The notes under the pieces are model-generated. The model was not told the origin of the DNA. It saw nothing but the letters and a program-made list of their open reading frames with translations, and did no database searches. DNA of 64,000 nucleotides from Armatimonadota bacterium. GTDB lineage: Bacteria > Armatimonadota > SYMT01. The position numbers and the translations under genes are program-made. Location: assembly GCA_046292385.1 (NCBI GenBank), contig JBKBRF010000021.1:50668-114667 (forward strand), given 5' to 3'. Of the stretch, positions 4,706 through 52,351 are shown piece by piece. Each line of letters opens with the position of its first letter. Within the stretch, counting starts at the first letter, position 1.

Positions 4706-4709
4706 TCCG

Positions 4710-9078: not shown

Positions 9079-9166
9079 CGTCTGCTCCCCGGCTCCTGAT
9101 CTCTAGCGACCGTCCATCTACTTCATTGTTACCGCAGGGGGCGTGGGAGAGCGGCGCTCAGGCGAA

Positions 9167-9189
9167 TAAAAGGAAACACTCTCCTTTAA
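9167..9189. promoter_or_regulatory. Operator palindrome TAAAAGGA-N7-TCCTTTAA in the divergent Rrf2 / cytochrome promoter region
   Basis: Same half-sites and spacing as 8158-8180. Confidence 0.7.
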
Positions 9190-9256
9190 TTCCATTAATC
9201 GCCGGCGGTACCCCGCAAGCTCCGTTCCCCGCCCCCGAACCCGAAAGGAAGAGGTT

Positions 9257-10651: not shown

Positions 10652-10662
10652 CACGAGCTCGG

Positions 10663-10688
10663 GGCGGCGGGAAACGCTTTCCGCCGCC
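10663..10688. terminator. GC-rich hairpin between convergent genes
   Basis: GGCGGCGGGAAA-CGC-TTTCCGCCGCC. Confidence 0.55.
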
Positions 10689-10699
10689 TCGGCTTCAGG

Positions 10700-11464
10700 C
10701 TACAGCTTCCGCAGGGCGAGGCGGTACTTCCAGGCGTCCTGGGCGCGGTTGTCGCCGTCGGTAAGCTCCACCAGGTAGGGTCCGTCTTCCGGCAGCTTCA
10801 CCTCGATGAAGCAGTCGCCGTAGAAGCTGACGGCGGCGCGCAGCGGAGCCCGGCGCGGATCCCGCAGGCGGAGGACCGGCTCGAACTCGATCGCGGGGTT
10901 CAGCCGCTTAGAGAAGAGCTCGATCCGCCACGTCTCCCCCGCCTTGCCCTGGAACTGGAAGACGTCCGCGCCTTCCTGGTTAAGCGTGCCGAGCACGGTT
11001 ACGGAGCCCGCCGGCAGTTCCTGGGGCTTGCGGAGGTCGTGGTTCGGCTCCTGCTCCTGCGTCTCCGGGGCGGGGACGTCGACGGTTACCTCTCCGCGCG
11101 CCTCGATCTCCTTCTCGCCGGTCAGCAGGAACGGGTAGCGGCCCGGCTTGAGGTCGGCGGCCGGCTCGACCTCCACCTCGACCAGCGAGTTGCCGCGGCG
11201 CTTCTCGGCGTCGTCCTTCGGCATGAAGGTGCCGGCGCGGACCGACTTCACGAGGATCCGGGATTCGTCGAAGCGCAGCGCGGAGGCGGGCAGGTCCTGT
11301 CCGTAGATCTTCAGCGTGGCCGGCTGGCCGGCGGTGACGAACGCCGGCTCTACGAAGCGCACTTCCTTGCGCTCCGGCTTCTGCTGCGCTCCCACCGCCG
11401 CGGCGAGCAGCAGGGCGCCGGAGAGCGCGGTGCTGGCGAGGAAGGCTGTGTTCCACTGCTTCAC
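10700..11464 (-). CDS. Exported protein with Ig-like and PPC (pre-peptidase C-terminal)-like domains
   Basis: GTG start overlaps the upstream TGA (GTGA); signal peptide; EQEPN...ADVFQFQGKAGE...FEPVLRL...LPEDGPY pattern. Confidence 0.75.
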   Translation of the reverse strand: MKQWNTAFLASTALSGALLLAAAVGAQQKPERKEVRFVEPAFVTAGQPATLKIYGQDLPASALRFDESRILVKSVRAGTFMPKDDAEKRRGNSLVEVEVEPAADLKPGRYPFLLTGEKEIEARGEVTVDVPAPETQEQEPNHDLRKPQELPAGSVTVLGTLNQEGADVFQFQGKAGETWRIELFSKRLNPAIEFEPVLRLRDPRRAPLRAAVSFYGDCFIEVKLPEDGPYLVELTDGDNRAQDAWKYRLALRKL

Positions 11465-12915
11465 TTCGCCGCCTCCGAGGTCGCCGCTACCTGGCTGGCG
11501 GCCGGTCCGATCGCCAGCGAGCGCAGCAGCTTGCCGTCCTCCGCGTTCCAGAAGTAGACCTTGCCGTCCCCCGCGCCGGCCGCCGCGGTCTTGCCGTCCG
11601 GCGAGAGGGCGACGGAGTAGACCCAGTCCTGCGCGTCCTGCAGCTCCCGCTTGTGGTCGCTCACCTCCGCGTTCCAGAGGCGGACGCGCCGGTTGGTGGC
11701 TCCCCAGGCAAAGCGGGATCCGTCCGCGCTGAAGGTGATGGAGCAGACCGGCTCCCCCTCCCCGTGCTCCCGCAGCGGGTTGCGGTTCCCTTCGGACTTC
11801 ACGGGCCACACGCGGACCCGTTTCTCCGCGCAGGTGACCAGCACGTCTCCCCTGGGGCTGAACGCCACCCCGGATACCCCCTCGCCGTGTGTCAGGGTGG
11901 TCGGCAGCTTGGACGTGCCGGCTTCGTAGAGACGGGCGGTGCGGTCCAGGCTGCTGGTGGCGAGCCACTTGCCGTCGGCGCTGTAGGCGACCCCCGTCAC
12001 CGGGGCGACGTGGTCTTTCAGGATGCGCGTGACCTTGCCGGTGCCGAGGTCCCAGAGCCGCGCGGTGCGGTCCTGACCCGCGGTCGCCAGCTCTTCCGTG
12101 CCGGGCCGCCAGGCGACCGCGTTGATCGTATCGGTGTGGTCGCGCAGCACCCGGGGTTTGGCGGCGGGGGTCTTCACGCTCCAGACGCAGACCTCGCCAG
12201 AGGTTCCGGGGCTGCCGCCCGCGGCGGCCAGGCGGGCACTGTCCGAAGACCACGCCAGCGAGAGCACCTGGTCCGCCGCGCCGGTCAGCGTCTCCTTCAC
12301 CTCGCCGGTCGCCGGATCGAGCAGGCGCACCGCGCGGTAGCCGCCGACTGCCAGCCGCGTGCCGTCCGGAGAGTAGGCGAGCGCGGTGACGGGGGCCGAC
12401 TGGATCACCGCAGCGGGGAGAAAGCGCTGGTGACCGGTAGGAACGGCGGCGCCGCCGGGACGGCGCTGCATCGGCATCGCGCCGCGCATGATGCCGCCCT
12501 TCTCCACGGGGGCGACCATGCTGTCGACCTTCGCCCCCTCGTCGATCCAGCGGCGGACCAGGGCGATCGTCTCCAGGTCGAGCGGCTTGCCGGGAGGCAT
12601 CTGGGGCTTCAGCTCGCCGGTAAGGTACTTCACCAGCGTGCTCTCCTTGCTCTTGCCGGGGACCACGGCGCGGCCGTGGCGCCCGCCGGCGAAGAGCTTC
12701 TCCTGGCTCTCCAGGCTGTAACCGCCCGGCGCCGCGGAGCCTTTGTGGCAGGAGAGGCACTCCCGGTTGAGCATCGGGAGCACCTGCTTGCTGAAGACCA
12801 CGGGGGCCGGCGCCGCCGTCCCGGGCCTGGCCAGCGAGAGGAGAGCAGTCCCTCCGGCGAGTACGGCGGCGAGCGCCCCGGCGGCGCGGAGAGAGACCGA
12901 ACGATACTTCGTCAT
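11461..12915 (-). CDS. Planctomycete-type cytochrome c domain + WD40 repeat protein
   Basis: Signal peptide; CLSCH...VVPGKS...MPP...WIDEGA; about 7 WD40 repeats. Confidence 0.9.
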   Translation of the reverse strand: MTKYRSVSLRAAGALAAVLAGGTALLSLARPGTAAPAPVVFSKQVLPMLNRECLSCHKGSAAPGGYSLESQEKLFAGGRHGRAVVPGKSKESTLVKYLTGELKPQMPPGKPLDLETIALVRRWIDEGAKVDSMVAPVEKGGIMRGAMPMQRRPGGAAVPTGHQRFLPAAVIQSAPVTALAYSPDGTRLAVGGYRAVRLLDPATGEVKETLTGAADQVLSLAWSSDSARLAAAGGSPGTSGEVCVWSVKTPAAKPRVLRDHTDTINAVAWRPGTEELATAGQDRTARLWDLGTGKVTRILKDHVAPVTGVAYSADGKWLATSSLDRTARLYEAGTSKLPTTLTHGEGVSGVAFSPRGDVLVTCAEKRVRVWPVKSEGNRNPLREHGEGEPVCSITFSADGSRFAWGATNRRVRLWNAEVSDHKRELQDAQDWVYSVALSPDGKTAAAGAGDGKVYFWNAEDGKLLRSLAIGPAASQVAATSEAAK

Positions 12916-14249
12916 CCGTACAGCTCGTGGATCGGCTCGGCGTCGGTCAGGATCCGCACCGGCCGGCCGGACGGCGTCTGCAGCTCCTTGTGGTAGTCGA
13001 CTCCCAGGGCGTCGTAGATCGTGGCGGCCACCTCGTGCGGGCGGACCGGCCGGTCCAGCACGTACTCGCCGCGGTCATCCGTGGTGCCGATCACCTGGCC
13101 GCCGCGCACCCCCGCCCCCGCGAAGAGCATCGAGCCGGCGTGGGCCCAGTGGTCGCGGCCGGCGTCCTTGTTGATCGTGGCGGTGCGGCCGAAGTCGCCG
13201 AACATCGCGACCAGCGTCTCGTCCAGCAGGCCGCGGTCCTTCATGTCGCGGAGCAGCGCCGCCACCGCCTGGTCCCACGGCTTCAGCATCTTGTCGCAGT
13301 TCTCGAAGATCTGGGCGTGGTGGTCCCAGGCGCTGTACTGCAGGAAGACGAACCGCACGTTCGCCTCCACCATCCGCCGGGCCAGCAGCGCCTGCATGCC
13401 CCAGCGGTCGCTCTTGCCGTACGCTTCCTTCGTCTTGTCGCTCTCCTTTGAGAGATCGAACGCCTGGCGCGCCTCTTCGGAAAGGACCATCTGCGCGGCC
13501 CGCTGGTAGAACGAGTCCATCGAGCGCAGCCCGTCGTTCCCCTCCACCCGCTTCGCCAGCGTGTCGACCGCGGAGAGCAGCCCCTTCCGGCGCTGGAGCC
13601 GGTCTTCCTTCACGTCCGGCTGGAGCCCCAGGTTCGGCACCTTCCAGTTGCCCTGCGACGGATCGCCGGTCTTGAACGACTCGTAGCGCTCGCCGAGCCA
13701 GGCTGCCTTGCCGAGCTCCCAGGTGAAGGAGTGGTTGCGCGGGATGGCGACATACGGCGGGAGCGAGTTGACCGCCTTCGTCTCGTGCGCCACGATGGCG
13801 CCGATCGCCGGGTAGTCGCCGCCCTGGGCCGTGCCGTAGTTGCCGGTGAGCATCCACTGCGCCGCCGTCTCGTGATGGTCGCTGCCCGCCACCTGGGAGC
13901 GGACCAGCGTGTAGAGGTCGTTGCACTGGGCGAGCTGCGGCACCTGGTCGGTGTACTGGACGCCCGCCAGCTTCGTCGGAATCACGCCGTACTTGCCGCG
14001 GATCTCCGACGGCGCCTGCGGCTTGGGATCGAGCGTGTCGTGGTGCGTCAGCCCGCCGCCGAGGTAGATCACCAGCACGTTCTTCGCCCGCGGCTTCCGC
14101 ACGGAGCCGCTCGCGGCGGCGGCCGACTCAGCACGCAGCAGGTCCGCAAGCGACAGCCCCAGCACCGAGAGGCTTCCCGCGCGCAGCACGTCGCGCCGGC
14201 TCACCCCGTCGCACTGCCGGTCCCTCGCCTTGCCGTAGAACGAAAGCAT
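12912..14249 (-). CDS. DUF1501 family protein
   Basis: SRRDVL Tat-like start; GGLTHHDTLDPKP, WDHH and GDFGRT...GRDHW motifs. Confidence 0.92.
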   Translation of the reverse strand: MLSFYGKARDRQCDGVSRRDVLRAGSLSVLGLSLADLLRAESAAAASGSVRKPRAKNVLVIYLGGGLTHHDTLDPKPQAPSEIRGKYGVIPTKLAGVQYTDQVPQLAQCNDLYTLVRSQVAGSDHHETAAQWMLTGNYGTAQGGDYPAIGAIVAHETKAVNSLPPYVAIPRNHSFTWELGKAAWLGERYESFKTGDPSQGNWKVPNLGLQPDVKEDRLQRRKGLLSAVDTLAKRVEGNDGLRSMDSFYQRAAQMVLSEEARQAFDLSKESDKTKEAYGKSDRWGMQALLARRMVEANVRFVFLQYSAWDHHAQIFENCDKMLKPWDQAVAALLRDMKDRGLLDETLVAMFGDFGRTATINKDAGRDHWAHAGSMLFAGAGVRGGQVIGTTDDRGEYVLDRPVRPHEVAATIYDALGVDYHKELQTPSGRPVRILTDAEPIHELYG

Positions 14250-37090: not shown

Positions 37091-38761
37091 ATGGAAGCGA
37101 AGGCTACTCGAAAAGCAGCCAGGTTATGCCTGGCCGGCAGGATCCCGGCGGCTCTGGCGGACACGGCTTCCGCCGACCTGATCCGGATCATGGCCCGAAG
37201 GGAGCTGACTCGCGCCGTCAGCTTCACGCGCCTCCGGGTTGATCTCGCCTTCGCGCTCGCCGGCGCCGCTGCCCTTACGCTAGCGATTCCGCTCCACCGG
37301 TCGGTCGAAGCCGCAGACGCGCCGCGTGGGACTACCTATCTGGCGGTCCTCGCGGTCGTCATTCAGCTCGGCATCATCGGGCAGAGTGCGATCGCCACCC
37401 GCTCCCGCTGGCATCGGGACATGAGCAGCGGCTCCGCGGAAGAGCTGGCCATGACCGGGGCGGCGCCCTCGCAGCTTCTGCTGGGGATCTGGCTTGGAGC
37501 GTGCGGGGCTGCAGCCGCCTCGATTCTCACACTGCTGCCGGTTCTGGTCCTGACGCTCGCCGTCACCGGGGCATCGGCCTCCGTAATGGCGCCGGTGCTC
37601 CTCTCCTGGTGGCTCTCCGCCGCCGCGGGCAGCGTGCTGGGTCTCATCCTGGCCTCCACCGAGCGCCAGGGCCTGAACGGGTCGCCCGTAGCTTGGCGCT
37701 TCTGGATCCTTCTGATTCTGGCCTGGGGATCCTACCGGAGCCTGTTTTCGACGTTCGGCGGCAGTGGATGGGCGCTCGAGCTACTGCGCATCTTCCGCAG
37801 CGCCGATCCCTTGCTCCTGGTGCCGGCCGCGGCCGGAGCGGTCGGCGAGCCGTGGGTGCCGAAGGCAGCGGCGGCCCTCCTGGCAATCGCCGGAACGGTA
37901 GCGTGGATCGGCAGCTCGCCCCGGCGGTTCGACTGGGGCGAGCCGCCAAAGGCGAGCGCGAGCTTCGACGGACTGATGCTGCTGCGGCCGGTGCGGCGAT
38001 GGGTCGCCGCGCACCGCCAGGCGCAGCCTCCCTGCTACGACCGGGACCTGGCCTATCGCTTTGAGCGGGCGCATGGTTGGCGTTTGCGAATTAGCACGGC
38101 GGGCTGGCTAATGCTGCTGGCGATCCTGCTGATCCCGGCGCTGCCGGTCGCGCTGTTGGGACCGGGCGCGCGGTCCGGCGCCTGGCTGCTGCTGATGCTC
38201 CCGCCGGTCGGCTCCGCGTTGATCGCCGGAATCGGAACAGCCGCCGCCCTCGCGGCGGAGCGGGAGCTGTCGCGTTGGCCGGGCCTGCTGTCCACGCCGC
38301 TGAGGACACGTGACTGGCTGCTGGCGAAGTGCCGCGCCGCCTGCACGGAGAGTGCTCCGCTCTGGGCGGCGGCGGCTTTCCAGGCCGCGCTTTTCGCGGT
38401 GGCGGGTGTCCTCGACTGGTCGGCGGTGGCGGTGGCGGGGCTGAGCGCGCCGCTCGCCGCCGGCGTCACCGCCGCCTGGACTGCGGCGTTCTGCGTCTCA
38501 GCGCGCTCCCTCGCCACTGCCACCCAGCGCGCCGTGATCCTGCTGCTCGTGCCGCCGGTGGTGGTGGAGCTGGCTCGCTGGCTGCTGCCGGGCGGGGAGG
38601 CACTGGAGAGCCTGAGTCTCTTCCATCTCCTCGCAGAGGCGCACCGCCACGGGCTTCACTCCGGCGGCCTCCCTCTCGTGGTCTCCACGGCACATGCCGC
38701 GAGTGCCTCGCTCTGCCTGGCGGCGGCCGTGTGGCAGCTCGAGCGCGATTCGCTCGAATGA
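37091..38761 (+). CDS. Multi-pass membrane protein resembling a duplicated ABC-2 type permease
   Basis: More than 10 hydrophobic segments; AAERELSRWPGLLSTPL...LLAK motif. Confidence 0.55.
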   Translation: MEAKATRKAARLCLAGRIPAALADTASADLIRIMARRELTRAVSFTRLRVDLAFALAGAAALTLAIPLHRSVEAADAPRGTTYLAVLAVVIQLGIIGQSAIATRSRWHRDMSSGSAEELAMTGAAPSQLLLGIWLGACGAAAASILTLLPVLVLTLAVTGASASVMAPVLLSWWLSAAAGSVLGLILASTERQGLNGSPVAWRFWILLILAWGSYRSLFSTFGGSGWALELLRIFRSADPLLLVPAAAGAVGEPWVPKAAAALLAIAGTVAWIGSSPRRFDWGEPPKASASFDGLMLLRPVRRWVAAHRQAQPPCYDRDLAYRFERAHGWRLRISTAGWLMLLAILLIPALPVALLGPGARSGAWLLLMLPPVGSALIAGIGTAAALAAERELSRWPGLLSTPLRTRDWLLAKCRAACTESAPLWAAAAFQAALFAVAGVLDWSAVAVAGLSAPLAAGVTAAWTAAFCVSARSLATATQRAVILLLVPPVVVELARWLLPGGEALESLSLFHLLAEAHRHGLHSGGLPLVVSTAHAASASLCLAAAVWQLERDSLE

Positions 38762-38772
38762 TCCTGTGAGGA

Positions 38773-40548
38773 ATGATGATGATCCGGTGGGTGCTCTGGC
38801 TACTCCTATCTGCCCTCGTGATTGCCGCGCCGGCTACCGCAGCTCCCGAGGTGAGACGCCGATCCACTCCCCCCGACTACAGCGCGTACCGGGCGGCGGC
38901 AGGCGCGGCGGGCGTGGTGTGGAGCGAAGAGGCCCGCAGTTCCTCACCCTGCCGGGTGTTTGTTCGGCTGGACACCCACACGCAGCGGCTTTCGGTGGAC
39001 CTGCCCCCACAGGTTTCTCTCGCCACCGCGGAACCCTGGCTGCAGGAAACGTCCGAGGCGCTGGGTGGGTCCGCCGTCCGCCTCTACTCGTATCAGGATG
39101 CGCAGCGAACGGTGGTAACGCTCGTCTCACCCGTGCACTCCGTGCATCCGTTCAGCCGTCGCGCCACGGTGGACACGAGACTGCTGGAAGCGCGGCTCCG
39201 GAAGCTGACCCCCAACCCTGTACTCCTGTATGTCCGTAGCAGCAACGCCGGCATCACCTCGGTCGCACCGGCGCCTTCCGCCCGCGCGACCTACGGAGGG
39301 GATACGTTCCTCTTCTACGCGGCGCTGCCGTCCGGTTCGGGAGCCCTCTCCGTCATCTACGGATACTCCGCGCGCGAGACGGCGGCGGTGCTGCTGGCTC
39401 TCGGGCTGTGGCTCCTTTTCCCCGTGGTGGTGCTGCTGGCCTTGCGGGCACATCTACGGCGCCAGGAGGATCTCACGCCGGAGGCGCGAGCGGCCGCCTT
39501 CAAGCGCTGGGGCTGGGGGATCCGCATCGCCGCAGTCGTAGGCACCTTCTTCACCTTTGCCGTCCTGGGAACGGCGAGAGCCGGAGGGCTTCCGCTGGGG
39601 GGTACCTCCGGCCTCCCGCCAGCGGTTCCCCTCTGGTTCTGGTGCAGTGCCGTCGCCAAGCTAATCACCCTCCCCGAACCGTCGGATCGCCCCAGACTGG
39701 CGGCGTGGTCGCGCTGGTGCTCGGCATTATGGGATCTCGCGCTGATGGGGTTGTTAGTCGCGGTCTGGCTGGCCCCCATTCGGAGCTGGGTCGCTCCCCT
39801 GGTGCTCCGCAGCGGGCTACAGGCGATACCGCTCCTGGTCGCGACGGCCGTCGCGGCGCTGGGCGCCGGGCTGGCATTCTTCGGGCTCTACCTGCTCCGC
39901 AGAGCGCCAGCCGCGTGGGCCGCTTCCCGAGCTCCCTCTCCGATTCCCAGTGATCCGGAGGGGCTGCGCGAGGCGTTTCGCGAGCTAACAGCACAAGCGG
40001 CGAGCGAAGAGATCCCGGCCACTCCAGAGATCCCATCCACCATCCCCCGGGGGGCTGCCGACTTCATCAACGCCCTGGAAGAGACGGTGAGGACGCTGGA
40101 GCCGGACCAGCGCGCCGCCCTGACGGCCAGCAGTCGCCTCCTGCTGGAAGGCCGGCCGCCTCGGATCCACGGCCCGCTCCTCTCCATCTTCGTGACGGGC
40201 GCCGCGCTGGCAGGAACCGGAGTCGCGGTCTGGCTGGTGCCTGTTCCGCTGCAGTGGGTGGTCCTGGCCGGCGGAGTGGGACTGAGTTTCGCCGGTTCGA
40301 TCTTCGGGAGCTGGATTGCCAACAAGTCGGACGGCTCGCTCCGCCAGCGCCAGGAAGAAGCCGACTTCAAGGTGGCGCAGGTGATGGATGATCCGCACCG
40401 CCTGGTCGACGCCCTCCGCCGGCTGGAAGAGTGCGAGCGGGTCCTCGGTTTCAGGACAGCATCCGGAGCGGCGGTGACGTCGATCCACCAGGACCGCAGA
40501 GAGCGCCTGGAGCGGCGCCTGGGAGACGGCTGCTGTCCGACAGCGTGA
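38773..40548 (+). CDS. Hypothetical membrane protein with a degenerate peptidase M48-like C-terminus
   Basis: Signal peptide, soluble domain and several TMs; QEEADFKVAQVMDDPHRLVDALRRL...RERL but no HExxH. Confidence 0.55.
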   Translation: MMMIRWVLWLLLSALVIAAPATAAPEVRRRSTPPDYSAYRAAAGAAGVVWSEEARSSSPCRVFVRLDTHTQRLSVDLPPQVSLATAEPWLQETSEALGGSAVRLYSYQDAQRTVVTLVSPVHSVHPFSRRATVDTRLLEARLRKLTPNPVLLYVRSSNAGITSVAPAPSARATYGGDTFLFYAALPSGSGALSVIYGYSARETAAVLLALGLWLLFPVVVLLALRAHLRRQEDLTPEARAAAFKRWGWGIRIAAVVGTFFTFAVLGTARAGGLPLGGTSGLPPAVPLWFWCSAVAKLITLPEPSDRPRLAAWSRWCSALWDLALMGLLVAVWLAPIRSWVAPLVLRSGLQAIPLLVATAVAALGAGLAFFGLYLLRRAPAAWAASRAPSPIPSDPEGLREAFRELTAQAASEEIPATPEIPSTIPRGAADFINALEETVRTLEPDQRAALTASSRLLLEGRPPRIHGPLLSIFVTGAALAGTGVAVWLVPVPLQWVVLAGGVGLSFAGSIFGSWIANKSDGSLRQRQEEADFKVAQVMDDPHRLVDALRRLEECERVLGFRTASGAAVTSIHQDRRERLERRLGDGCCPTA

Positions 40549-43436: not shown

Positions 43437-46139
43437 ATGCGCAGCTCTACTTCTTCCTCCCCGATCCGCTTCTGCTGGATCTTCTACGCCCTGCTCGCCG
43501 CGTGCTTGCTCCTGCCGCGGCTCGACGCCCTGGCGCAGCCGGTGGGACGGCTCGACGTCGGCGAGCCGCAGCTCTCCACGCCCCTGCTGGTCACCGGGAC
43601 GGAAGGGGTGCTGGCCGTCGAGTTGATCAACTCCGGGACCCGGGAGCTCCGGGGGTTCACGGTCGAGGCGGTGCCGCCGTTCGGACTCCGCCTGGAGCCG
43701 CTTCAGCCGGCGCCCGCGGTGCTGCCGGTCGGGGAGCGCGCGGAGGTATCGTGGCGGGTCTCCGCGGAGCAGCCAGACCTCTTCCCGGTGCTGGTCCGCG
43801 TCCAGGCGGAAGGCGTGGAGCCGGTCGAGCGGGAGGTGCAGGTGGCGGCGGTGCCGCCCGGGCCGGCGCCGGACCTGCGCACGGTGGAGCATCCGGTGGT
43901 GGCGCCGGACGCGGCCGGTAACTTCATCTTCCGCAACCGGCACCTGGTGGCGCTGCTGGTCAAGACCGGGAACCGCTTCGGGCCCATGATCCTCTGGCCG
44001 ACGCGCCGACCCACCGATCCGGAGGCGCTGCCGCTCGCGGTCGCCCCCGCGCTCGCGCGCCTCGCGTGGAAGGAGGGCGACCAGCTCCACAGCGCCTCGT
44101 TCCTGCCGTCCGACGTCAAGCGCCTGGGCGACGACCGCCTGCGCCTCCGCGGCACGGCTGCGCAGGGTAACGTCACGTGGGACCTGGAGATGGAGCTGGA
44201 AATCGGGGAGGAGCCCTGGCTCAAGTGGAGCGCCAGCACGCGGCCCAGCGCTTCCGCCTCGCTCGTCCGCTTCGCGCCGCTGTCGCTGAAGGTTGCCGCC
44301 GAGCCCAGGTCCGAGGTGCTCTTCCCGGGCGTGCTCTACGACGAGGTCGAGCGCATCGACGCCGAGGAGCTTCGGCCGCGCCTGCTGGCGCCGAACCCGC
44401 TGCAGGTAACGGTGCCGCTGATGGCGGTCACTTCCGGCCGGACTACCCTCTCGCTGATGTGGGACCAGGCGCAGAAGTGGGGCGGCACTGGCGCGCCGGC
44501 CGCGCTGCTCGGCACCGCCCCGGTGCGGGACGCGGGCGCCGAGTATCGGATGGAGCTGTTTCTCCCCTCCATTCCGGACTACGTCCGCGAAGACGAGACG
44601 ACCGCCACCCAGACCTACGAAGTGCCGGCCGGCGTGCCGGTCCGGCTCCAGGCGCGCATCGCGGTGCTGCGCGAAGAGGAAGACCCGACTGCCGCGGTAC
44701 GGACGTGGGCGGACGCCTACCTGCACATGGGAGTCCGGAAGTATCCGGTTCCGTTCGAGCGGGTGCGGGAGCTGGCCCGCGTAAGCTACCTGCGCACCCT
44801 GTGGGACCCGCAGGTGCCCGGCTGGCTTCCCGCCGTGGGACCAGAGCCGGTCCGCGCAGAGCCTTCCCCCTCTAACGTGCTGGCACTGCTCATCGACGCG
44901 GGCCTGACGGAGAAGGACGCCGTCTCCGCGGAGCTGCGTCAGCGGGCGGAGGTCGTCCTCGACGCGCTCCAGGCGCAGGGGCCGCTCGATCCGGTGCTGG
45001 CGTACCGGGTCGGCGGCGTCATTCCCACTCTCGACGCCGTTTACGAGGCGGTGCGCCCGCTGATCCGGGAGCAGCTCGCCAGCGGCGCCTGGCCGCTCGA
45101 CGTTCCGGTGGACGACGAGCCGGCCCGGAGTGAGGAGATCGGCCCCATTGCCCGGCGCGCGGTGACGGTCCTCCGTTCCGCGGTGCTGACCGGCGACAGC
45201 GACGCGGCCGGAGCGGGCCGGCGTGCCCTCGAGTACATGGCGGGGCGCTTCCGGGTCCCGCGCGGCGGCCTGCCGGGAGAGGTGCCGCTGCAGGCGGCCG
45301 ATCTCCTCGCCGCCGCCGATGCCGCGGAGGCGTTCCTCCTCGGCTACCAGGTGAGCGGCGAGCGGCGCTACGTGGACGAGGCCCGCTACTGGGCGGACAC
45401 CGGGCTGCCGTTCGTCTACCTCTGGGGCGATCCGGCGCGGCCGGCGCTCAAGCAGGCGGCCCTCCCCTACATGGGAAGCGACGAGGCGATGCAGTGGATC
45501 GGTCTCCGCTACGCGCTGGTGCTGCGCGCGCTGCACGACGTGCGGCCAGACGCCCTCCACGACTACGTCTCCGAAGGCATCCTCTCCAGCGCCATGCACC
45601 AGATGGAGAAGGCCGGCGCCAACGCCGGGCTCTACCCGGAGCGCTGGGACGTGCGCACCAGCGCTCCGGAAGGCGCCTGGCTCAACCCGGAGGGCGTCCT
45701 GGCGCTGATGTACCGCCTCCAGCGTTACAACCCGCAGGTCTCCCACCTGCGGCTGCGGACCGGGGCGGACCGGATGTTCGTCGCCAGCGGCGCCACCATC
45801 CTGGAAGGCATCACTACCGCCCAGCGCCTCCGCCTGAAGCTGCGCTGGATCCGCGGCGAGGACACCTTCACCACCATCACGGGGGTGCCGGAGCGCCCGA
45901 TCCGCATCGAGATCAACGAGTCCCCGCTGCGGCGCTTCGGCCTGCCGATCTCCCGGGAGTTCCTGCCGGAAGTGACGGAAGAGTCGCAGGTCGGCTGGTA
46001 CTACGACGAGCTGCGGCAGCTGCTGATCCTCCGCCTGCGGCACACCAGCCGGGAGGACAACATCGAGGTCCGCTGGCACGACCCGCGGGAGCGGACCGAG
46101 GTAGAACGGATCGACACCCGCGTCCGTCCCCGCCGATAA
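43437..46139 (+). CDS. Large exported hypothetical protein (N-terminal Ig-like domain, C-terminal alpha/alpha-toroid-like region)
   Basis: Signal-like N-terminus; GC3-biased ~900-codon frame; GYQVSGERRYVDEARYWA helix-hairpin pattern. Confidence 0.7.
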   Translation: MRSSTSSSPIRFCWIFYALLAACLLLPRLDALAQPVGRLDVGEPQLSTPLLVTGTEGVLAVELINSGTRELRGFTVEAVPPFGLRLEPLQPAPAVLPVGERAEVSWRVSAEQPDLFPVLVRVQAEGVEPVEREVQVAAVPPGPAPDLRTVEHPVVAPDAAGNFIFRNRHLVALLVKTGNRFGPMILWPTRRPTDPEALPLAVAPALARLAWKEGDQLHSASFLPSDVKRLGDDRLRLRGTAAQGNVTWDLEMELEIGEEPWLKWSASTRPSASASLVRFAPLSLKVAAEPRSEVLFPGVLYDEVERIDAEELRPRLLAPNPLQVTVPLMAVTSGRTTLSLMWDQAQKWGGTGAPAALLGTAPVRDAGAEYRMELFLPSIPDYVREDETTATQTYEVPAGVPVRLQARIAVLREEEDPTAAVRTWADAYLHMGVRKYPVPFERVRELARVSYLRTLWDPQVPGWLPAVGPEPVRAEPSPSNVLALLIDAGLTEKDAVSAELRQRAEVVLDALQAQGPLDPVLAYRVGGVIPTLDAVYEAVRPLIREQLASGAWPLDVPVDDEPARSEEIGPIARRAVTVLRSAVLTGDSDAAGAGRRALEYMAGRFRVPRGGLPGEVPLQAADLLAAADAAEAFLLGYQVSGERRYVDEARYWADTGLPFVYLWGDPARPALKQAALPYMGSDEAMQWIGLRYALVLRALHDVRPDALHDYVSEGILSSAMHQMEKAGANAGLYPERWDVRTSAPEGAWLNPEGVLALMYRLQRYNPQVSHLRLRTGADRMFVASGATILEGITTAQRLRLKLRWIRGEDTFTTITGVPERPIRIEINESPLRRFGLPISREFLPEVTEESQVGWYYDELRQLLILRLRHTSREDNIEVRWHDPRERTEVERIDTRVRPRR

Positions 46140-46379: not shown

Positions 46380-49019
46380 TCAGAACCAGGTCCAGACTTC
46401 GGTGCGGATATAGCGGTAGACGCGCCGGAACGCCACCTCCCGCAGGGGACGCTCGCCGCAGATGATCTTGGCGTGGCCGGTAATGCCGGGACGGAGATCG
46501 CCCTCCGGGTTCTCCACCTGCAGCCGGATTTCGTAGGCGCCGCGGCCGTTCGACTTCACCGGGCGGGGGGAGACGTCGGTCACGTGTCCTTCGAAGAGAC
46601 GGTCCGGGTACGCGCCGACTCGGAGCTGCACCGGCAGGCCCCGCCGGATCTCCCCCATCTCCTTCTCGTCGACCAGTACTTTCGCGGTGAGCGTCTCCAC
46701 CCGGTCGATCCAGGCGAGGGTCTGGCCGCGGTTCAGCTTCAGGCCGCGCTTCTCGTGCAGGCGGGGCGAGCTGATGACGCCGGAGATCGGCGCGGTGACC
46801 TGGGTCTGCCGAATCTTGCGCTCCACTCGCTCGATCTCCGTCACCAGCGGACGCGCCTCCAGCCGCTTCGCCGCCGCTTCCGCCCGCTTCACGTCCGCCG
46901 CCTGCCGCAGCACCCGGCGCGCCTCCAGCATCGCGGAACGGGTGTCGAGCTCGTCCCGGATCGCGTCCAGCCGCTCCGGGCGGGTCTCCTGCGCCACCAC
47001 CCGCTGGCTCTCCAGCGCCGCCTCGTACCCCGCGCGGAGGCGCCGGACCTCCGATTCGGCGTCCTCCCGATCTTCGTGCAGCGTCTTCAGCTTGGCGCGG
47101 AGCTCGCTCTGCAGCGCCGCCTCTTCCCGCTCCAGCGCCTTCAGGTCGGCCGCCAGGGTGTCGAGCCGCTGGCTCTGGAGCGCCCCTTCCCGCACCAGGA
47201 ACGCCGCCCGGCGCACTTCTTTCTGGGCCAGGTCCCGCTGCGCTCGGAGGCGGTCGATCCGCTCCACCACTGCCTGGGCGTCCGGCGGCAGGCGGCCTTC
47301 CGCCGCCGCGCGCTCGTCCCCCCGCAGCCGTTCCGCCACCCGCTCCGCGGAATCGAGAGCGGCCCGCGCCTCCTGCACCTTCCGCTCCGCCTCGGACTGG
47401 CGCGCGGGGAACAGCTCCTGGCGGTCCGACAGCTCCGCCTGCGCGCTGCGGATGTCCCGGAGGTCTTCCAGCACGTCCCGCTCCTTCTCCGCGGCGACCA
47501 GCGGAGCCTCCTGCTCCACCACCCGGCTGGCGGCCTCCACGCTGTCGACCTTCTGCCGGAGCTGCTCCGTCACTTTCTCCAGGTCGTAGCTCTCCAGCAC
47601 CGCCACCACCTCGCCCGCCCGCACCCGGTCGCCCTCCCGCAGGCGGATCTCCTGGACCACGCCTTCTACCGCGCCGCGGATCGGAATCCGCGCCTCCGCC
47701 TCCAGCGTGCAGGGGCTGGCCACCGCGAGGGTCCAGCGCGCGTTCCAGAACCAGATGCCGCCGCCCGCCAGCAGCGCCAGCAGCAGCACCGGCCGCAGGC
47801 GCGGACGCAGCGGCTTCTCCTTCCGCTCCGCCAGCCGGGCGCGCACGCGGCCCGCCATCGTCTTGAGCCAGGAGGAAAGGATCGCCATGGTCAGGATTCC
47901 TAGGACGAAAGCACCCTCGCGGCCGTAGCTGCCGACCAGCCACCGGCCGAGGGAGTAGTAGAGGAAGGTGAGCAGCACGGCCGAGTAGAGCCAGGAGCCG
48001 AAGCCGAACCAGAAGAAGATACGGCGCTCTCGCGCGTCATTGCTCCGCGGGGGCTCCGTGCCGACGAGAATCGAGCCGACCCGTCCCTGAAAGTAGCGGA
48101 TCGCCTTGTCTCGCAGGTTCGGGATGCGGAGCCAGTCGCTCAGCAGATAGTAGCCGTCCAGCTTGATGAACGGATTCAGGTTCATCAGCGCCATGAAGCC
48201 GCAAGTGCCCACCATCACGTGGCAGATCCGCGCCGGCACCGTCTCCGGCTCCAGCAGCTTCCACAGCACGAACGCCAGGGCGCCGAAGACCAGCTGCCAC
48301 GCCAGGCCGGCGCTGCCGATGAGCAGCCGCTCCTTACGGGACGAGAGGGTCCAGGCGCCGCTCACGTCGCAGTAGAAGCACGGAATCCCATACATCACGA
48401 AGAAGCCGACCCCGTGGCTGCGCGCGCCGAAGTAGCGGCACGTGACCCCGTGTCCCAGTTCGTGGAAGATCGAGATCACCGTGAATCCGGTCCAGAGCAG
48501 CACCATCCCTCCGGGCGTGAGCACGGGCCGGGAATGCCGCGCCAGCTCCTCCACGCTAAAGAACGCCCAGTGCCCCACGTAGAGCAGGAAGAGGACGATC
48601 AGCGCGATTCCGGCCGGGTGGTAGGCGGCGCGGGCGAGCGGCTGCAGCGCCTGGAAGAGGCCGTCCGCCGGCACCGGGGGGAGCTGGATGCGGAGCAGGC
48701 GCCGGTAGAACGGTACCGCTACGCGGCGCAGCCCAGGGACGGAGCCTTCGAGCCAGCCGAGCCCGTGGAGGCGCTGCGCGAAGGCGATGACGGTAGCCTG
48801 CGAGAGGCGGACGCCGGGGAACTCCCGCAGCACCGCCCCGTGCACCTCCGCGAGCGGCGTGACGCCGTCCAGCAGAGAGAGGATGAAGCCTTCGACTTCC
48901 CGGATGCGGAAGTACTTGCCAGTGCGGGGATCATGGACGACGGTGAGGCTGCGCCCCTCTTCCGAGACAGGCGTCAGAACCAGATCGTGCCGCCTCTGCG
49001 GGGTGCTGGAAGCGTCCAT
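46380..49019 (-). CDS. PqqD/RRE-like + M50 (site-2) Zn metalloprotease + HlyD membrane-fusion protein
   Basis: N-terminal VVHDPRTGKYFRI...LLDG...L..LGWL; FHELGH; NLNPFIKLDGY; lipoyl halves, long coiled coil and LRPGITGHAKI beta-barrel. Confidence 0.9.
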   Translation of the reverse strand: MDASSTPQRRHDLVLTPVSEEGRSLTVVHDPRTGKYFRIREVEGFILSLLDGVTPLAEVHGAVLREFPGVRLSQATVIAFAQRLHGLGWLEGSVPGLRRVAVPFYRRLLRIQLPPVPADGLFQALQPLARAAYHPAGIALIVLFLLYVGHWAFFSVEELARHSRPVLTPGGMVLLWTGFTVISIFHELGHGVTCRYFGARSHGVGFFVMYGIPCFYCDVSGAWTLSSRKERLLIGSAGLAWQLVFGALAFVLWKLLEPETVPARICHVMVGTCGFMALMNLNPFIKLDGYYLLSDWLRIPNLRDKAIRYFQGRVGSILVGTEPPRSNDARERRIFFWFGFGSWLYSAVLLTFLYYSLGRWLVGSYGREGAFVLGILTMAILSSWLKTMAGRVRARLAERKEKPLRPRLRPVLLLALLAGGGIWFWNARWTLAVASPCTLEAEARIPIRGAVEGVVQEIRLREGDRVRAGEVVAVLESYDLEKVTEQLRQKVDSVEAASRVVEQEAPLVAAEKERDVLEDLRDIRSAQAELSDRQELFPARQSEAERKVQEARAALDSAERVAERLRGDERAAAEGRLPPDAQAVVERIDRLRAQRDLAQKEVRRAAFLVREGALQSQRLDTLAADLKALEREEAALQSELRAKLKTLHEDREDAESEVRRLRAGYEAALESQRVVAQETRPERLDAIRDELDTRSAMLEARRVLRQAADVKRAEAAAKRLEARPLVTEIERVERKIRQTQVTAPISGVISSPRLHEKRGLKLNRGQTLAWIDRVETLTAKVLVDEKEMGEIRRGLPVQLRVGAYPDRLFEGHVTDVSPRPVKSNGRGAYEIRLQVENPEGDLRPGITGHAKIICGERPLREVAFRRVYRYIRTEVWTWF

Positions 49020-49387
49020 GCGGTGCCGGAGCCGAAAAAATCGGCGCGGCGGGGGATTGCGCCCCGGTCAGGGCCGCGCTAAGAGGAATATTGGCTGGTG
49101 CCAATCCTCCGGCACAGCGCGCAGGGCGGTTAATTCGGCGCCCCGTGTGCCGGGCGCCTAATCTTTGGGCCGAACAGCTTCGAGAAAAAAACTTCGCTCG
49201 GAGCGAAAATAACCCTAAAGAGGCCTGGAAGCACCGCCAATACTGATTGCACAGGCAGAGATAACCCGGTGATTTGCCCAGGAAGGGCGGCAACCCTTCC
49301 CCGGCGACCAGTTCTTTCTCTACCGAAAACGACGTGGGTAGCTCGGTGCCCTGGAGCCTGCGACAACAGGCAAGAGGGCGTGGTTCG

Positions 49388-49411
49388 TCAGTCGTCCCAG
49401 ATTACGTGCAT
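49388..49411 (-). CDS. 7-aa micro-ORF MHVIWDD
   Basis: GAGGA-ACGAAA-ATG CAC GTA ATC TGG GAC GAC TGA; in-frame stop just upstream; shares IW[ED]D with the neighbouring peptide. Confidence 0.5.
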   Translation of the reverse strand: MHVIWDD

Positions 49412-49471
49412 TTTCGTTCCTCGAAATCAACCGAGTGGAAGGCTGAAGTAGATCCCTCTGGAGAGGGTCGA

Positions 49472-49588
49472 CTACGGCCCGGGAACCACGGTCGCCGGCG
49501 GGGCATCTTCCCAGATGGCGTTCGGGGCCGTGCGGTCCTCCAGCTCTTCGATCTCGAGGGTCAGTTCGTCAAGGTGCAGTTCTGCCAT
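49472..49588 (-). CDS. 38-aa precursor-like peptide MAELHLDELTLEIEELEDRTAPNAIWEDAPPATVVPGP
   Basis: GGAG RBS; host-like codons; acidic leader ending EELEDRTAP; hairpin CCCTC-TCCA-GAGGG just after the TAG; below the ORF-track size cutoff. Confidence 0.8.
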   Translation of the reverse strand: MAELHLDELTLEIEELEDRTAPNAIWEDAPPATVVPGP

Positions 49589-49857
49589 GGGGTAGCTCCA
49601 TTCTTCGGAAAAGTGGATGCTCCCAGGCCTCTAGTGGTTTTCCTCTTACACCAGCGATAGTCGGCAAACTAGCGCTCGCTCACTAAAGGATTTCGGCTTA
49701 TTTTTGCCGGAGTCCTTTTCGCGCGCCACTGTTTTTTGTTGCGAGTTTGCTGAGACGCAAAAAACCGGTTTGGCCGCCTGCCTGGATTCGACCGTTTTGC
49801 GCTCCGCTGCCGTGATTTCTCCCTCCGCCCCATGTTCGTCCGTTTGGTGTAGTGGTC

Positions 49858-49872
49858 TGGCACGGAACTTGC
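49858..49872 (+). promoter_or_regulatory. Sigma-54 (-24/-12) promoter TGGCACGGAACTTGC
   Basis: Exact TGGCACG-N4-TTGC consensus ~100 bp upstream of the ATG at 49970. Confidence 0.8.
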
Positions 49873-49969
49873 ATGTGTAGTAAGCGAGTATCCGGCGCAC
49901 GGACACTCCCATTGCAGTGAAGCTCTCCCACTCCCCACCCGGACGAGGTGGAATGACGAGCCGGGGTCT

Positions 49970-52351
49970 ATGCAATTCGAGCAACTCCCGCGGCGCCTGC
50001 AAGCGCTGATCCTGGTAAAGGCGGTGGCGGCGATTGGCGTCACCCACTGGCTCTGGAGCATCTCTAGCTTCGGGGAGTGGCGCCTGCTCGGGTTCCTGAC
50101 GCTGTGCGGGGCGATCGCCGGCGCATGTAAGGTCGATACGCAGGTCAAGGCGGGCCGGGGAAGCATCACCCTCGGCTTTATGGTGACCTATTTCACCTTT
50201 CTGCTGCTGGGGCCGGAGGCCACGATCCCGATCGGCCTCGCCACCGGAATCGCGGGGCGGGTGGTGCAGTACACCGACGGCCGTCCGCACGTGGTCTGGG
50301 CGCGCGCGGTCTCCTACCACATCCTCTACAACTGCTCCAACCTGGTGCTGGCGATCGCCGCCATGGGGCTGGTCTACCCGCTGCTGGGCGGCCGCTACGG
50401 GGAGGTGGAGCTGACGCAGGCGGCGGTTCCCTCTTTCGCCAGCGCGCTCACCTACTACGCGGTCAACATCGGTGGGGTGGCGCTGGCGATCGCGTGGAGC
50501 CAGAACCGATCGGCGGTAGAGGTCTTCCGCAAGAACTTCTCCTGGGCGCTCCCCGGATTCCTGGCTAGCGCCTCCCTCTCGGTCGCGGTGCTCTGGCTCT
50601 ACGGGCACATCCACAGCGCGCTCATCTGCACGCTCGTGGTGCCGATGGCCTACGTGGTGCACCGCAACTTCCGGATGAGCCGGGACCAGCTCCGGGCGGA
50701 GCGCGACCACATGGCCGAGGTGAACCGCCTCAACGAGGCGATCATCTCCAGCCTGGCGATGGCGGTCGACGCCAAAGACCGGCTCACGCGCGGGCACGTC
50801 GACCGCGTGCGCACCTACGCCACGCGCCTGGGCGAGGCGTTGGGAATCTCCGCGGACGAGCTGCAGGCGCTGCGCATCGCCGCGATCCTCCACGACATCG
50901 GCAAGATCGGGATTCCGGAGCGGATTCTCTGCAAAGAGGGCAAGCTCACCGGCGACGAGTTCGAGCTGATGAAGAAGCACGTGGAGATCGGCGCGAACAT
51001 TCTGGAGCAGGTGCAGTTCCCCTGGCCGGTGGTCCCGATCGTGCTGGGGCACCACGAGCGCTGGGACGGGCTGGGCTACCCTCACGGCTGGCGCGGCGAG
51101 GAGATCCCGATCGGCGCCCGCATCTTGATGGTGGTCGACGTCTTCGACGCCCTGACCTCGGAGCGGCCGTACCGGCGCGCCATGGAGCACGCAGAGGCGC
51201 TGGCGGTGCTGGTCTCCAACCGCGGCTCTCAATTCGATCCGGTCGTGGTGGACCGCTTCGTCGAGCTGCTCCCCAGCGTGGCCGAGGAGATCCAGGCCCT
51301 GCGCGAGGACCAGGCGGACGCGGTGCATCTGCTGGCGCCGCCGGTCCCGGCCGCGGTCGCCGCGAGCGCCGTCTTTACCGACCCGGAGGCGGAGCTGCTG
51401 GTGGAGCTCACGCGGCGCGCGCTCAGCGCGGACGGCCTTCCGGCAATCAGCTCTCTGCTGACGGAAACGGTAACCTGCCTGCTCCCCTTCTCCACCTTCG
51501 CGGTCTTCCTGCGCTCCCCGGACGGTCGCCACGTGAGGGCCGTCACGAGTGCCGGGCTGTGGAGCTCCCTGCTGGACGGTATCGAGATCCGGATGGGCGA
51601 AGGGGTGAGCGGCTACGTGACCCAGACCCGTCAGGCGGTGATGAATGGCTCCGCCAGTCTCGACCTCGCCCGCCGGGTGCGCCCCGGCGAAAACCTGGAG
51701 TTGAACTCCACCCTCTGCGTCCCGCTCATCGCGGAGGGCGAGGCGGTGGGCGCACTCACCGTCTACCACACCGGCTACAACTTCTACCAGGCGCAGCACC
51801 TGCAGCGCCTGGAGCGGATCGCCCGGTGCGCCGCCGGCGCGCTGGAGAAGAGTCCCCGCGCCTTGCTGGCGGAACGGGAGCTGGACCACTACACTGCCCC
51901 GCCGATGCTACGGGAAGCGGTGCTGCGCCACCTGGACGAGCGGCTCCACGCCGCCGCACCGAGCCAATCCGCGGTCACCCTGGCGCTGGTCCGCCTGGAG
52001 TGTACCGCCAACACCCCCGCCCTGGAGATGGCGCGCCACGCGCGGGAGCTGACGCGCCTGCTGCGGCTCACCGTGCGCGATGCCGACTTCCTGACCCGGT
52101 ACTCCAGCACCGAGTTCGCGCTGGTGCTTCCGGGCTGCGGCGAGCGGGAGAGCGCCCAGATCGAGGAGCGACTTCGCTCCCGTCTCTCTCGGCCGGACAC
52201 CGAATCGGAAGCGCTCCCGGTCCCGATCAGCTTCGGCTGGGCCCTTTTTCCGGAAGACGGTCCGGATGCCGCCGCCCTGCTCCACATCGCCCAATCCCGC
52301 CTGGAAGATCAGAGCCGCCAGCAGGAAGCGCTCCGCCGCCTGATCGGGTAA
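49970..52351 (+). CDS. Membrane sensor HD-GYP phosphodiesterase with GAF and degenerate GGDEF domains
   Basis: About 7 N-terminal TMs; LHDIGK, HHERWDGLGYP and RPYR; GAF (GEGVSGYV...LCVPL...GALTVY); RYSSTEF in place of RYGGDEF. Confidence 0.92.
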   Translation: MQFEQLPRRLQALILVKAVAAIGVTHWLWSISSFGEWRLLGFLTLCGAIAGACKVDTQVKAGRGSITLGFMVTYFTFLLLGPEATIPIGLATGIAGRVVQYTDGRPHVVWARAVSYHILYNCSNLVLAIAAMGLVYPLLGGRYGEVELTQAAVPSFASALTYYAVNIGGVALAIAWSQNRSAVEVFRKNFSWALPGFLASASLSVAVLWLYGHIHSALICTLVVPMAYVVHRNFRMSRDQLRAERDHMAEVNRLNEAIISSLAMAVDAKDRLTRGHVDRVRTYATRLGEALGISADELQALRIAAILHDIGKIGIPERILCKEGKLTGDEFELMKKHVEIGANILEQVQFPWPVVPIVLGHHERWDGLGYPHGWRGEEIPIGARILMVVDVFDALTSERPYRRAMEHAEALAVLVSNRGSQFDPVVVDRFVELLPSVAEEIQALREDQADAVHLLAPPVPAAVAASAVFTDPEAELLVELTRRALSADGLPAISSLLTETVTCLLPFSTFAVFLRSPDGRHVRAVTSAGLWSSLLDGIEIRMGEGVSGYVTQTRQAVMNGSASLDLARRVRPGENLELNSTLCVPLIAEGEAVGALTVYHTGYNFYQAQHLQRLERIARCAAGALEKSPRALLAERELDHYTAPPMLREAVLRHLDERLHAAAPSQSAVTLALVRLECTANTPALEMARHARELTRLLRLTVRDADFLTRYSSTEFALVLPGCGERESAQIEERLRSRLSRPDTESEALPVPISFGWALFPEDGPDAAALLHIAQSRLEDQSRQQEALRRLIG

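Follow-up and report, generated by a model that had tools for sequence, protein, structure and literature searches.

A leader-bearing peptide gene beside an RRE-M50-HlyD protease gene in an Armatimonadota bacterium: a predicted precursor family spread over many phyla

RESULTS

A 38-codon gene lies next to a predicted intramembrane protease gene

We analysed a stretch of 64,000 nucleotides (the window) of contig JBKBRF010000021.1 from an Armatimonadota bacterium, with the focus on a 38-codon gene, P0001, which runs from ATG to TAG at 49472..49588 on the minus strand (stop codon included) and encodes MAELHLDELTLEIEELEDRTAPNAIWEDAPPATVVPGP. A preliminary description, made from the letters alone, had read this open reading frame (ORF) as a peptide precursor with a leader and a core, and the frame is present as described. 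The next gene on the same strand, 452 nucleotides (nt) downstream, encodes P0002 (46380..49019, minus strand), a protein of 879 amino acids (aa) that Pfam and NCBIfam matches identify as a fusion of a PqqD-type RRE (RiPP recognition element, RiPPs being peptides that are made ribosomally and then modified post-translationally), an M50 intramembrane metalloprotease and a HlyD adaptor. As P0002 is followed by a gene in the opposite orientation, the minus-strand unit consists of the peptide and the fusion only. The divergent upstream gene encodes P0125 (49970..52351, plus strand), in which a MASE9-like polytopic membrane domain is followed by HD-GYP, GAF and GGDEF domains (HD_5, GAF and GGDEF matches). 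Our best explanation as a whole, to which we give a probability of about 0.78, is that P0001 is a leader-plus-core precursor docked and cut by P0002, that the core is released and that a Trp-containing unit of the core serves as a signal.

The putative leader comprises residues 1–22 (49523..49588, minus strand) and ends in LEIEELEDRTAP, while the putative core, residues 23–38 (49475..49522, minus strand), is NAIWEDAPPATVVPGP, the first four residues of which fit the motif x-hydrophobic-hydrophobic-Trp. In agreement with the first account, the leader is acidic, with a net charge of −7, and the C-terminal part is rich in Trp and Pro (one Trp and five Pro among 16 residues; net charge −2). Sequence prediction gave no membrane segment in P0001. 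The GGAG ribosome-binding site that had been pointed out is found 7 nt ahead of the ATG (49596..49599, minus strand), and the DNA alignment has a purine-rich, GGAG-like stretch at the matching place in all four relatives. Codon use had been called host-like; the GC content per codon position (0.77/0.41/0.79) is indeed patterned like that of the two flanking genes (0.74/0.46/0.91 and 0.70/0.46/0.91), with a less extreme third position. A stem-loop reported directly 3′ of the stop codon is there, beginning 3 nt past it (49440..49480, minus strand; −23.4 kcal/mol), but its folding does not stand out from that of shuffles (z −0.98, with 34 of 200 folding equally well) and it has no U-tract. A better terminator candidate is a hairpin about 265 nt further downstream, at 49208-49192, in the terminator-like element between the peptide and protease genes (49182..49208, minus strand; seven pairs and then TTTTTTT). 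This hairpin is a consensus match only, in a region with four terminator-like sites compared with 1.4 ± 1.1 in shuffles. No sigma-54-type GG-N10-GC element was seen by eye upstream.

In P0002, the PqqD-like RRE spans residues 27–90 (48750..48941; PF05402, 24.5 bits against a cut-off of 23.4), the HExxH zinc site residues 186–190 (48450..48464), the third-ligand motif NLNPFIKLDG residues 280–289 (48153..48182) and the HlyD or membrane-fusion-protein part residues 440–858 (46446..47702; HlyD_D23 9.2e-20, HlyD_3 4.9e-14), all on the minus strand. An RND_mfp match of 8.1e-26 is under the cut-off of that model. Hydrophobic segments lie at 128–251, and the RRE-M50 part, residues 1–420, occurs once in the genome. 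The best NCBIfam match, over residues 23–390, is the daptide metalloprotease model daptide_HExxH (NF041824, 2.9e-58), P0002 being under the curated cut-offs of every specific protease model. H186, E187, H190, N280, P283, D288 and G289 are invariant in 18 P0002 homologues. Given that HExxH and NxxPxxxxDG, the zinc-ligand motifs which M50 (site-2) proteases carry in membrane helices, are invariant and that the best match is a daptide metalloprotease, the protease looks active from its sequence.

The reading frame is conserved and co-occurs with the protease

P0001 is single-copy in its own genome (7.04 Mb, 98% complete). Searching 61 related genomes, of which G000 is its own, revealed homologous small ORFs in G001, G006 and G007, and a profile built from the four rows matched only these genomes among 401 of the phylum at E <= 4.4e-14. 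Weak profile matches (E 6e-5 to 0.1) in 24 further genomes of the phylum were rejected as family members; the best two are internal stretches of a secreted protein of about 1100 aa. The DNA alignment of the four genomes is conserved only over the leader codons and not in the flanking DNA. Within 14 leader codons, positions 1, 2 and 3 account for 10, 6 and 45 of the differences, and the differing codon pairs are 33 synonymous versus 18 non-synonymous. Conservation of the frame in relatives had been set as a test of the first account; the frame is kept in all four genomes with a third-position substitution bias, from which we conclude that P0001 is a real gene under selection. The peptide and the RRE-M50 part of the protease (residues 1–420, E <= 1e-10) are both present in G000, G001, G006 and G007 and both missing in the other 57 of the 61 genomes, a co-occurrence that comes from related and hence non-independent genomes.

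Contigs of two RNA libraries span 49224..49637, that is, the whole ORF with 49 nt upstream and about 250 nt downstream. These contigs, from two studies (X7 records 9-11, X18 record 1), belong to close relatives and are 95–100% identical. Both libraries have a contig end at 49224, with no loose end listed, and a DNA contig (X3, 49101-49355) crosses that place; the shared end is a weak hint of an RNA end or a short transcript. The RNA-library contigs do not span 48900-49195 or 49640-50000, and missing cover in contigs does not amount to silence. Comparison of contigs by hand gave, for the ORF in close relatives, one synonymous variant and the core changes A29G and V34A. The roughly 250 nt from the stop codon to the hairpin (49224-49471, minus strand) share their RNA-library contigs with the ORF, show no conservation in the three relatives and have no Rfam match. 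Pieces of 48900-49730 also occur, at 95–100% identity, in contigs of four runs labelled soil, root and rhizosphere, and the best holder of such pieces is labelled as a hot-spring metagenome.

The leader is predicted to dock on the RRE and the M50 domain

The preliminary description had claimed that the leader would pair as a β-strand with the RRE of the 46380-49019 protein. PqqD-like RREs are winged-helix domains that pair their β3 strand with the leader. Co-folding of P0002 residues 1–420 with zinc and the peptide gave interface scores (ipSAE) of 0.70, 0.70 and 0.69, compared with 0.01 for the best control, and the runs agreed in at least 55% of contacts. The interface predicted with confidence comprises leader residues 6–21 on an RRE strand and the M50 domain. 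Leader residues 13–16 are predicted to pair antiparallel with RRE residues 36–39 with an expected error of 1.1–1.4 Å. On the RRE side, the leader would touch residues 27, 35–40, 42–43, 46 and 70–87; on the M50 side, residues 115, 216–223, 286, 291 and 300–304, with leader residues 16–21 contacting invariant M50 residues around 216–223 and 300–304. Together with the conservation of the two genes as neighbours and their co-occurrence, this model supports the claimed pairing.

Two daptide reports describe leaders with the motif ELExMEAP, Pro at position −1, and an RRE fused to a site-2 protease; the leader is cut after ELExxxxx whatever the P1 and P1′ residues (10.1101/2023.03.08.531785, 10.1101/2025.07.11.664356). 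The likeness of the P0001 leader end to that of daptides, which the first account had suggested, is thus upheld as far as these sources go. Applied to P0001, the daptide rule would place the cut between P22 and N23, which by analogy agrees with the earlier claim of a cut after Ala-Pro. We consider that P0001 is most probably processed by the adjacent P0002 fusion, with leader binding suggested by the structural model and the cut site by analogy with daptides.

P0001 belongs to a leader family found in many phyla

A 15-position leader profile was made from 43 peptides of loci L058–L133, with P0001's own genome and its close relatives L056 and L057 excluded. Among 133,753 six-frame frames of the genome, this independent profile picked P0001 as the sole significant one (E 1.1e-4; next 6.6), so that the genome-wide scan for further such leader ORFs, proposed at the outset, returned P0001 alone. 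P0002-like fusions gave 448 matches among 8000 candidates scored in a protein collection, all with generic names only, and at least 589 RRE-M50-HlyD stretches were confirmed in species-representative genomes. We compared 79 loci, comprising 78 from species-representative genomes and one (L134) from a metagenome scan with a single protein. The strict leader pattern ...EELE(E/Q/D)R(I/T)AP has 59 matches on the protease strand, in 29 of the 79 loci (11,333 short frames), and one on the opposite strand (12,199 short frames). A looser pattern has 49 matches on the protease strand against one on the other (24 loci), and variant leaders in 12 more loci bring the peptide to at least 41 of the 79 protease loci. 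All 50 profile matches are also on the protease strand, but the profile came from peptides of that strand, which makes the count partly circular; strand linkage was therefore judged by the two-strand pattern counts.

Each locus has one to seven precursor copies, mostly 200–800 nt upstream of the protease gene and sometimes just downstream. In a 33-row alignment, L16, E17 and P22 are invariant and L11, E14, E15 and A21 are present in at least 90% of rows, while the core is free to vary. A second profile, made from these 33 family members and searched against 1.84 billion representatives, retrieved 427 cluster representatives at E <= 0.001. Among the best 150 of the 427, the motif is present in 142, of which 139 have the Ala-Pro end and two a C-terminal Thr, the C-termini being diverse. 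Family peptides are 20–90 aa long. On this sequence evidence, P0001 belongs to a large precursor family distributed over many phyla and characterized by a variable core behind an amphipathic, acidic leader that has E-L-E-x-(R/K)-x-A-P at its end. The exact P0001 peptide is present in the protein collection without a name, and orthologues from two relatives are in NCBI-derived records. A literature search, with most subscription journals outside it, found no account of this leader family or of RRE-M50-HlyD fusions, and the leader family is apparently new to the record.

The short length of the ORF, the lack of a promoter-like site and a third-position GC content of 0.79 compared with 0.91 in the neighbours are what one would expect of a chance intergenic ORF with no product. 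Such an origin is hardly credible in view of the third-position substitution bias in four genomes, the sole significant match of an independent profile, the strand-specific linkage (59 matches versus one) and the strict co-occurrence with the protease. It may also be asked whether P0001 stays in the cell as a regulator or decoy of the M50 protease or its adaptor, or as the substrate of a regulated-proteolysis switch. Site-2 proteases classically act in regulated intramembrane proteolysis and no transporter gene lies near the pair, but the peptide is without a membrane segment, a conserved leader with a freely varying core is the pattern of a precursor, and a regulator would hardly be expected in several tandem copies at one locus; we consider this role very improbable.

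Two further kinds of small ORF were noticed in the compared loci. Upstream of the protease gene in L069, L078, L084, L106, L111, L119, L126 and L128, near-identical Gly/Asn/Pro-rich cores stand behind the leader; the loci with such recurring cores are labelled Planctomycetota, Gemmatimonadota, Acidobacteriota and Burkholderiales, and some have up to seven precursor copies. This recurrence across phyla suggests conserved function and horizontal spread. ORFs of a different type, 44–54 aa long and 2.4–7.4 kb from the protease gene, are found on the plus strand in L068 (13390), L094 (11327 and 11701) and L104 (3554). They have a longer Lys/Glu-rich leader ending in ...EELEER(V/I)A(T/A), followed by a short core that contains Pro-Trp and Cys, and are possibly another peptide class with a related leader.

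No tailoring or export gene accompanies the pair

In the window from 35.9 to 63.7 kb, which takes in about 13 kb to each side of the pair, Pfam and NCBIfam matches gave neither a transporter nor an enzyme for RiPP tailoring. At 12 further loci, taken from several phyla, there is no conserved tailoring gene or pump, the one methyltransferase seen (L063 only) being unrelated, and no immunity-like gene conserved beside the pair. No ABC (ATP-binding cassette) transporter is present beside the pair in the window neighbourhood or at those 12 loci, and no radical-SAM gene is present in the window neighbourhood. The LanB-like domain PF04738 had no match in this genome (98% complete), but none in the control genomes either, so that the negative carries little weight. 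Since no conserved tailoring gene or pump was found at the 12 loci, release of an unmodified peptide by the fusion itself is the simplest reading, and the product is probably an unmodified linear peptide.

Other genes of the neighbourhood include one for a protein of about 900 aa with an N-terminal signal-like segment (43437-46139, plus strand) and two for proteins of more than 550 aa (37091-38761 and 38773-40548, both plus strand), all three without a Pfam or NCBIfam match.

A Trp core motif is associated with a divergent HD-GYP gene

By predicted structure, the membrane domain of P0125 aligns with clusters whose aligned part is MASE9 (TM-score 0.90; feature score 0.94); by sequence, its match to MASE9 (PF20972) is E 0.048, at 14 bits against a cut-off of 24.3. 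P0125 homologues are encoded in 13 of the 79 protease loci and, in G001 and G006, are divergent from the peptide gene. Only the closest P0125 orthologues (37–42% identity) adjoin a peptide gene. Four more MASE9-like paralogues, with 25–29% identity to P0125 residues 1–260, are encoded on contigs C27, C30, C38 and C44 of the same genome, and no leader peptide was found alongside them.

In nine loci, and in G001 and G006, the core starts with x-hydrophobic-hydrophobic-Trp directly after the leader Pro. The window core (N-A-I-W...) shares this start with the cores of G001, G006 and L086, and the conserved part of the core is these first four residues only. Six Acidobacteriota loci have ORFs of 19–23 codons between the protease and HD-GYP genes, encoding a related leader and a core of five to seven residues that starts in the same way. 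An HD-GYP neighbour is present in eight of the nine loci with a Trp-motif core, the ninth ending at a contig end, compared with three of 27 loci with other cores (Fisher 4e-5, a value that is overstated because the link rests largely on related Acidobacteriota loci). These data make P0125 a candidate for a conserved third partner of the peptide-protease pair.

The four-residue motif also occurs outside the precursors. In the Acidobacteriota locus L086, a gene for an S8 protease (9035-10939, plus strand) lies between the RRE-M50-HlyD gene (37-4986, plus strand) and a gene for a MASE9-type HD-GYP-GAF-GGDEF protein (11038-13521, plus strand); a 1649-aa STAND/TPR/GAF sigma-54 activator is encoded upstream. 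The tail of this S8 protease has 13 copies of the Trp motif within 120 residues and 16 in all. Outside the window, contig C17 of the genome under study encodes an S8 subtilase (L149 7516-9534, plus strand) with about 10 C-terminal repeats of Q-A-L-W-S-D, a unit close to the N-A-I-W-E-D start of the window core. The gene is directly downstream of that for a TPR-HisKA-HATPase histidine kinase (L149 4937-7054, plus strand). That S8 protease tails repeat the motif supports the short Trp unit, rather than the 16-residue core, as the functional element.

An unmodified bacteriocin-like or secreted effector peptide, processed and exported by P0002 with the HD-GYP gene as a mere neighbour or a regulator of production, would be backed by the same processing evidence. 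Many loci carry two to seven precursors that differ in their cores, an arrangement also seen in bacteriocin loci, and the M50 protease EpeP is thought, according to a review, to cut and export an antimicrobial peptide (PMC10885120). We nevertheless hold this to be distinctly unlikely, as no immunity-like gene is conserved beside the pair, the core, which is rich in Pro and has a net charge of −2, is acidic rather than cationic or amphipathic, only four residues of it are conserved and across phyla the Trp motif goes together with the HD-GYP neighbour.

DISCUSSION

The closest kin of the pair described here is the daptide leader and its protease (MpaA/DapA and MpaP/DapP; 10.1101/2023.03.08.531785, 10.1101/2025.07.11.664356). 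Daptides and P0001 have in common a short precursor whose acidic leader contains E-L-E-x-x-x-A-P with Pro at −1, which in P0001 is E15-L16-E17-x-x-x-A21-P22; the daptide protease and P0002 have in common an N-terminal RRE fused to an M50 protease and a cut five residues after E-L-E, which for P0002 is our prediction. The two systems differ in several respects. Daptides end in an invariant Thr, whereas P0001 ends in Pro. Genes for DapB (DUF-RRE), the DapC oxidoreductase, the DapD aminotransferase and the DapM methyltransferase are absent at 35.9–63.7 kb and at the 12 other loci, and there is no gene for the DapT transporter at this locus. Unlike the daptide protease, P0002 continues at its C-terminus into a HlyD adaptor of about 440 residues. 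Diderm phyla are the hosts here, in place of Actinomycetota or Bacillota for daptides, and a link to an HD-GYP protein is a further difference. Daptide identity was rejected, since three of the four tested features fail (C-terminal Thr, tailoring genes and the NF041824 cut-off).

M50 proteases also act in the epipeptide and pearlin pathways, and EpeP, according to a review, is thought to do both the cutting and the export of its peptide (PMC10885120). Like the pair in question, the epipeptide system (YydF/EpeX with YydH/EpeP/LiaK) sets a membrane M50 protease on a small peptide (PMC10885120). It differs in its leader type and in its radical-SAM epimerase, for which there is no counterpart beside the pair; P0002 scores 39.6 against 225 bits with the epipeptide protease model NF058609. 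With that score far under the cut-off and no radical-SAM gene in the neighbourhood, epipeptide identity was rejected. In the pearlin pathway, TglG/TmoG is likewise an M50 membrane protease acting on a small scaffold peptide, according to the same review (PMC10885120), but the pearlin enzymes remove a C-terminal modified amino acid and not a leader. Of the PEARL enzyme of pearlins, which is LanB-like and tRNA-dependent, there is none nearby, and none was found in the genome, with the control silent. The ammosamide/lymphostin model Amm_Lyn_leader has no match to P0001 and a weak one to a single relative (E 0.083, 13 bits against a cut-off of 30); this is the sole trace of the pearlin likeness that the preliminary description had suggested, and the analogy was not sustained.

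These comparisons bear on whether P0001 is a true RiPP precursor, the core of which would be modified by daptide-, pearlin- or epipeptide-like enzymes encoded elsewhere before the M50 protease removes the leader. All three characterized uses of M50 proteases on small peptides (epipeptides, pearlins and daptides) are RiPP pathways, as far as the sources above describe them, the best match of P0002 is a daptide enzyme, and one family member has the weak ammosamide/lymphostin match just given. We find modification of this kind unlikely, for there is no tailoring gene within about 13 kb on either side or around the 12 other loci, the genome, at 98% completeness, showed no LanB-like N-terminal domain (control silent), the C-termini are diverse (Thr in two of 142 among the best 150 of 427; Pro in P0001) and cores of five to seven residues leave scant room for modification.

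Three other comparisons were made. The LEPR-XLL or planctomycete signal, which had been suggested as a likeness at the outset, is a motif at the N-terminus of large secreted proteins. When NCBIfam models were run against six family peptides at E <= 10, no LEPR-XLL-type model matched, and matches to an LExRxLL-type regular expression in the genome had no link to this locus. The family peptides are not heads of giant proteins, and the likeness was dropped. C39 peptidase-ABC transporters (PCATs) with HlyD adaptors export double-glycine leader peptides, which have GG, GA or GS at positions −2/−1, in diderms. They would resemble P0002 in that leader removal is coupled to export with a HlyD-type adaptor; P0002 differs in being M50 and not C39, in having no ABC domains, in an Ala-Pro rather than Gly-Gly leader end and in the fusion of adaptor to protease. 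Double-glycine/PCAT identity was rejected on the Ala-Pro end in 139 of 142 members (best 150 of 427) and on the absence of an ABC transporter beside the pair. AgrD/AgrB/AgrC and the short hydrophobic peptides of RRNPP systems represent peptide pheromone circuits of Bacillota. A possible likeness is that genes for a tiny precursor, a processing enzyme in the membrane and a polytopic membrane sensor stand side by side, with a short hydrophobic or aromatic active unit. There is no sequence relationship, the hosts here are diderms and the output would be turnover of cyclic di-GMP (c-di-GMP), not a kinase or a transcription factor.

Taking these results together, we propose that the P0001 leader would dock as a β-strand on the cytoplasmic PqqD-like RRE at the P0002 N-terminus and that the M50 intramembrane zinc protease would cut between P22 and N23, five residues after E-L-E. 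The core NAIWEDAPPATVVPGP would be released at or across the inner membrane, and the fused HlyD-type periplasmic adaptor may aid its outward passage. The N-terminal x-hydrophobic-hydrophobic-Trp unit might then act as a signal linked to the neighbouring MASE9-like c-di-GMP enzyme. Export and signalling, like binding and the cut site, are inferred steps. A signalling role of the Trp core in connection with P0125 is the least certain part of the proposal, and we put it forward as a tentative idea, with the odds somewhat against it. P0125's MASE9-HD-GYP-GAF-GGDEF architecture is that of proteins named by Galperin and Chou, whose paper gives the ligand as unknown and as probably bound within the membrane (10.1101/2021.11.05.467447). 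The paper links MASE9 to no peptide or protease, whereas here a sub-branch of MASE9 adjoins a peptide-protease pair. A more specific scheme, in which x-hydrophobic-hydrophobic-Trp peptides, often continuing with Ser/Glu/Gly-Asp, are ligands of one MASE9 branch in a three-gene peptide-to-c-di-GMP circuit and the repeat tails of S8 proteases are a second source of them, is in our opinion doubtful. [quoted passage not shown]

A number of observations weigh against the proposal. For processing, 58 of 80 solved complexes and two of 110 mismatched pairs reach the mark used for the co-fold, but our alignments were our own and a zinc ion rode along, so that the setting differs from that of the calibration. 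The peptide, as the partner chain, has a predicted local distance difference test score (pLDDT) of 50–53, the P22-N23 bond is not confidently placed, and the pass itself may reflect a likeness to solved RRE-leader complexes. P0002 scores 197.8 with NF041824 against a cut-off of 300 bits, and 23.9 with Pfam Peptidase_M50 against 27.2. For expression, the RNA-library contigs carry no information on strand or level, and DNA may be present in RNA libraries. The region upstream of P0001 yielded no sigma-70-like promoter, and an Rfam scan of 48900-50100 at E <= 1 gave no match and hence no described riboswitch upstream of the gene. For export, there is no gene for an inner-membrane pump or outer-membrane channel near the pair, which leaves the role of the HlyD part unexplained. 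For signalling, the G007 locus encodes peptide and protease without an HD-GYP gene, and the G007 core is without Trp; MASE9-type domains, found in 19 of the 61 genomes and in five copies in the genome under study, are far commoner than the peptide.

If the proposal is correct, a pair of leader and RRE-protease that works without a tailoring enzyme or an ABC pump would be spread over many diderm phyla, including Acidobacteriota, Planctomycetota, Gemmatimonadota, Zixibacteria and Verrucomicrobiota among others, with hundreds of distinct precursors that are named only generically in public records. A far larger protease family than that of daptides would obey the fixed ruler of five residues after E-L-E, which would offer a predictable and portable tool for leader removal. 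An intramembrane protease fused to a periplasmic adaptor would raise the mechanistic question of how a peptide is released without a pump. For MASE9, a membrane sensor domain of c-di-GMP enzymes that is still an orphan, the Trp-core subfamily would provide a first candidate ligand open to testing. The subfamily would also represent a candidate for peptide-based cell–cell signalling in bacteria of the Gram-negative type, which have few known systems of the kind.

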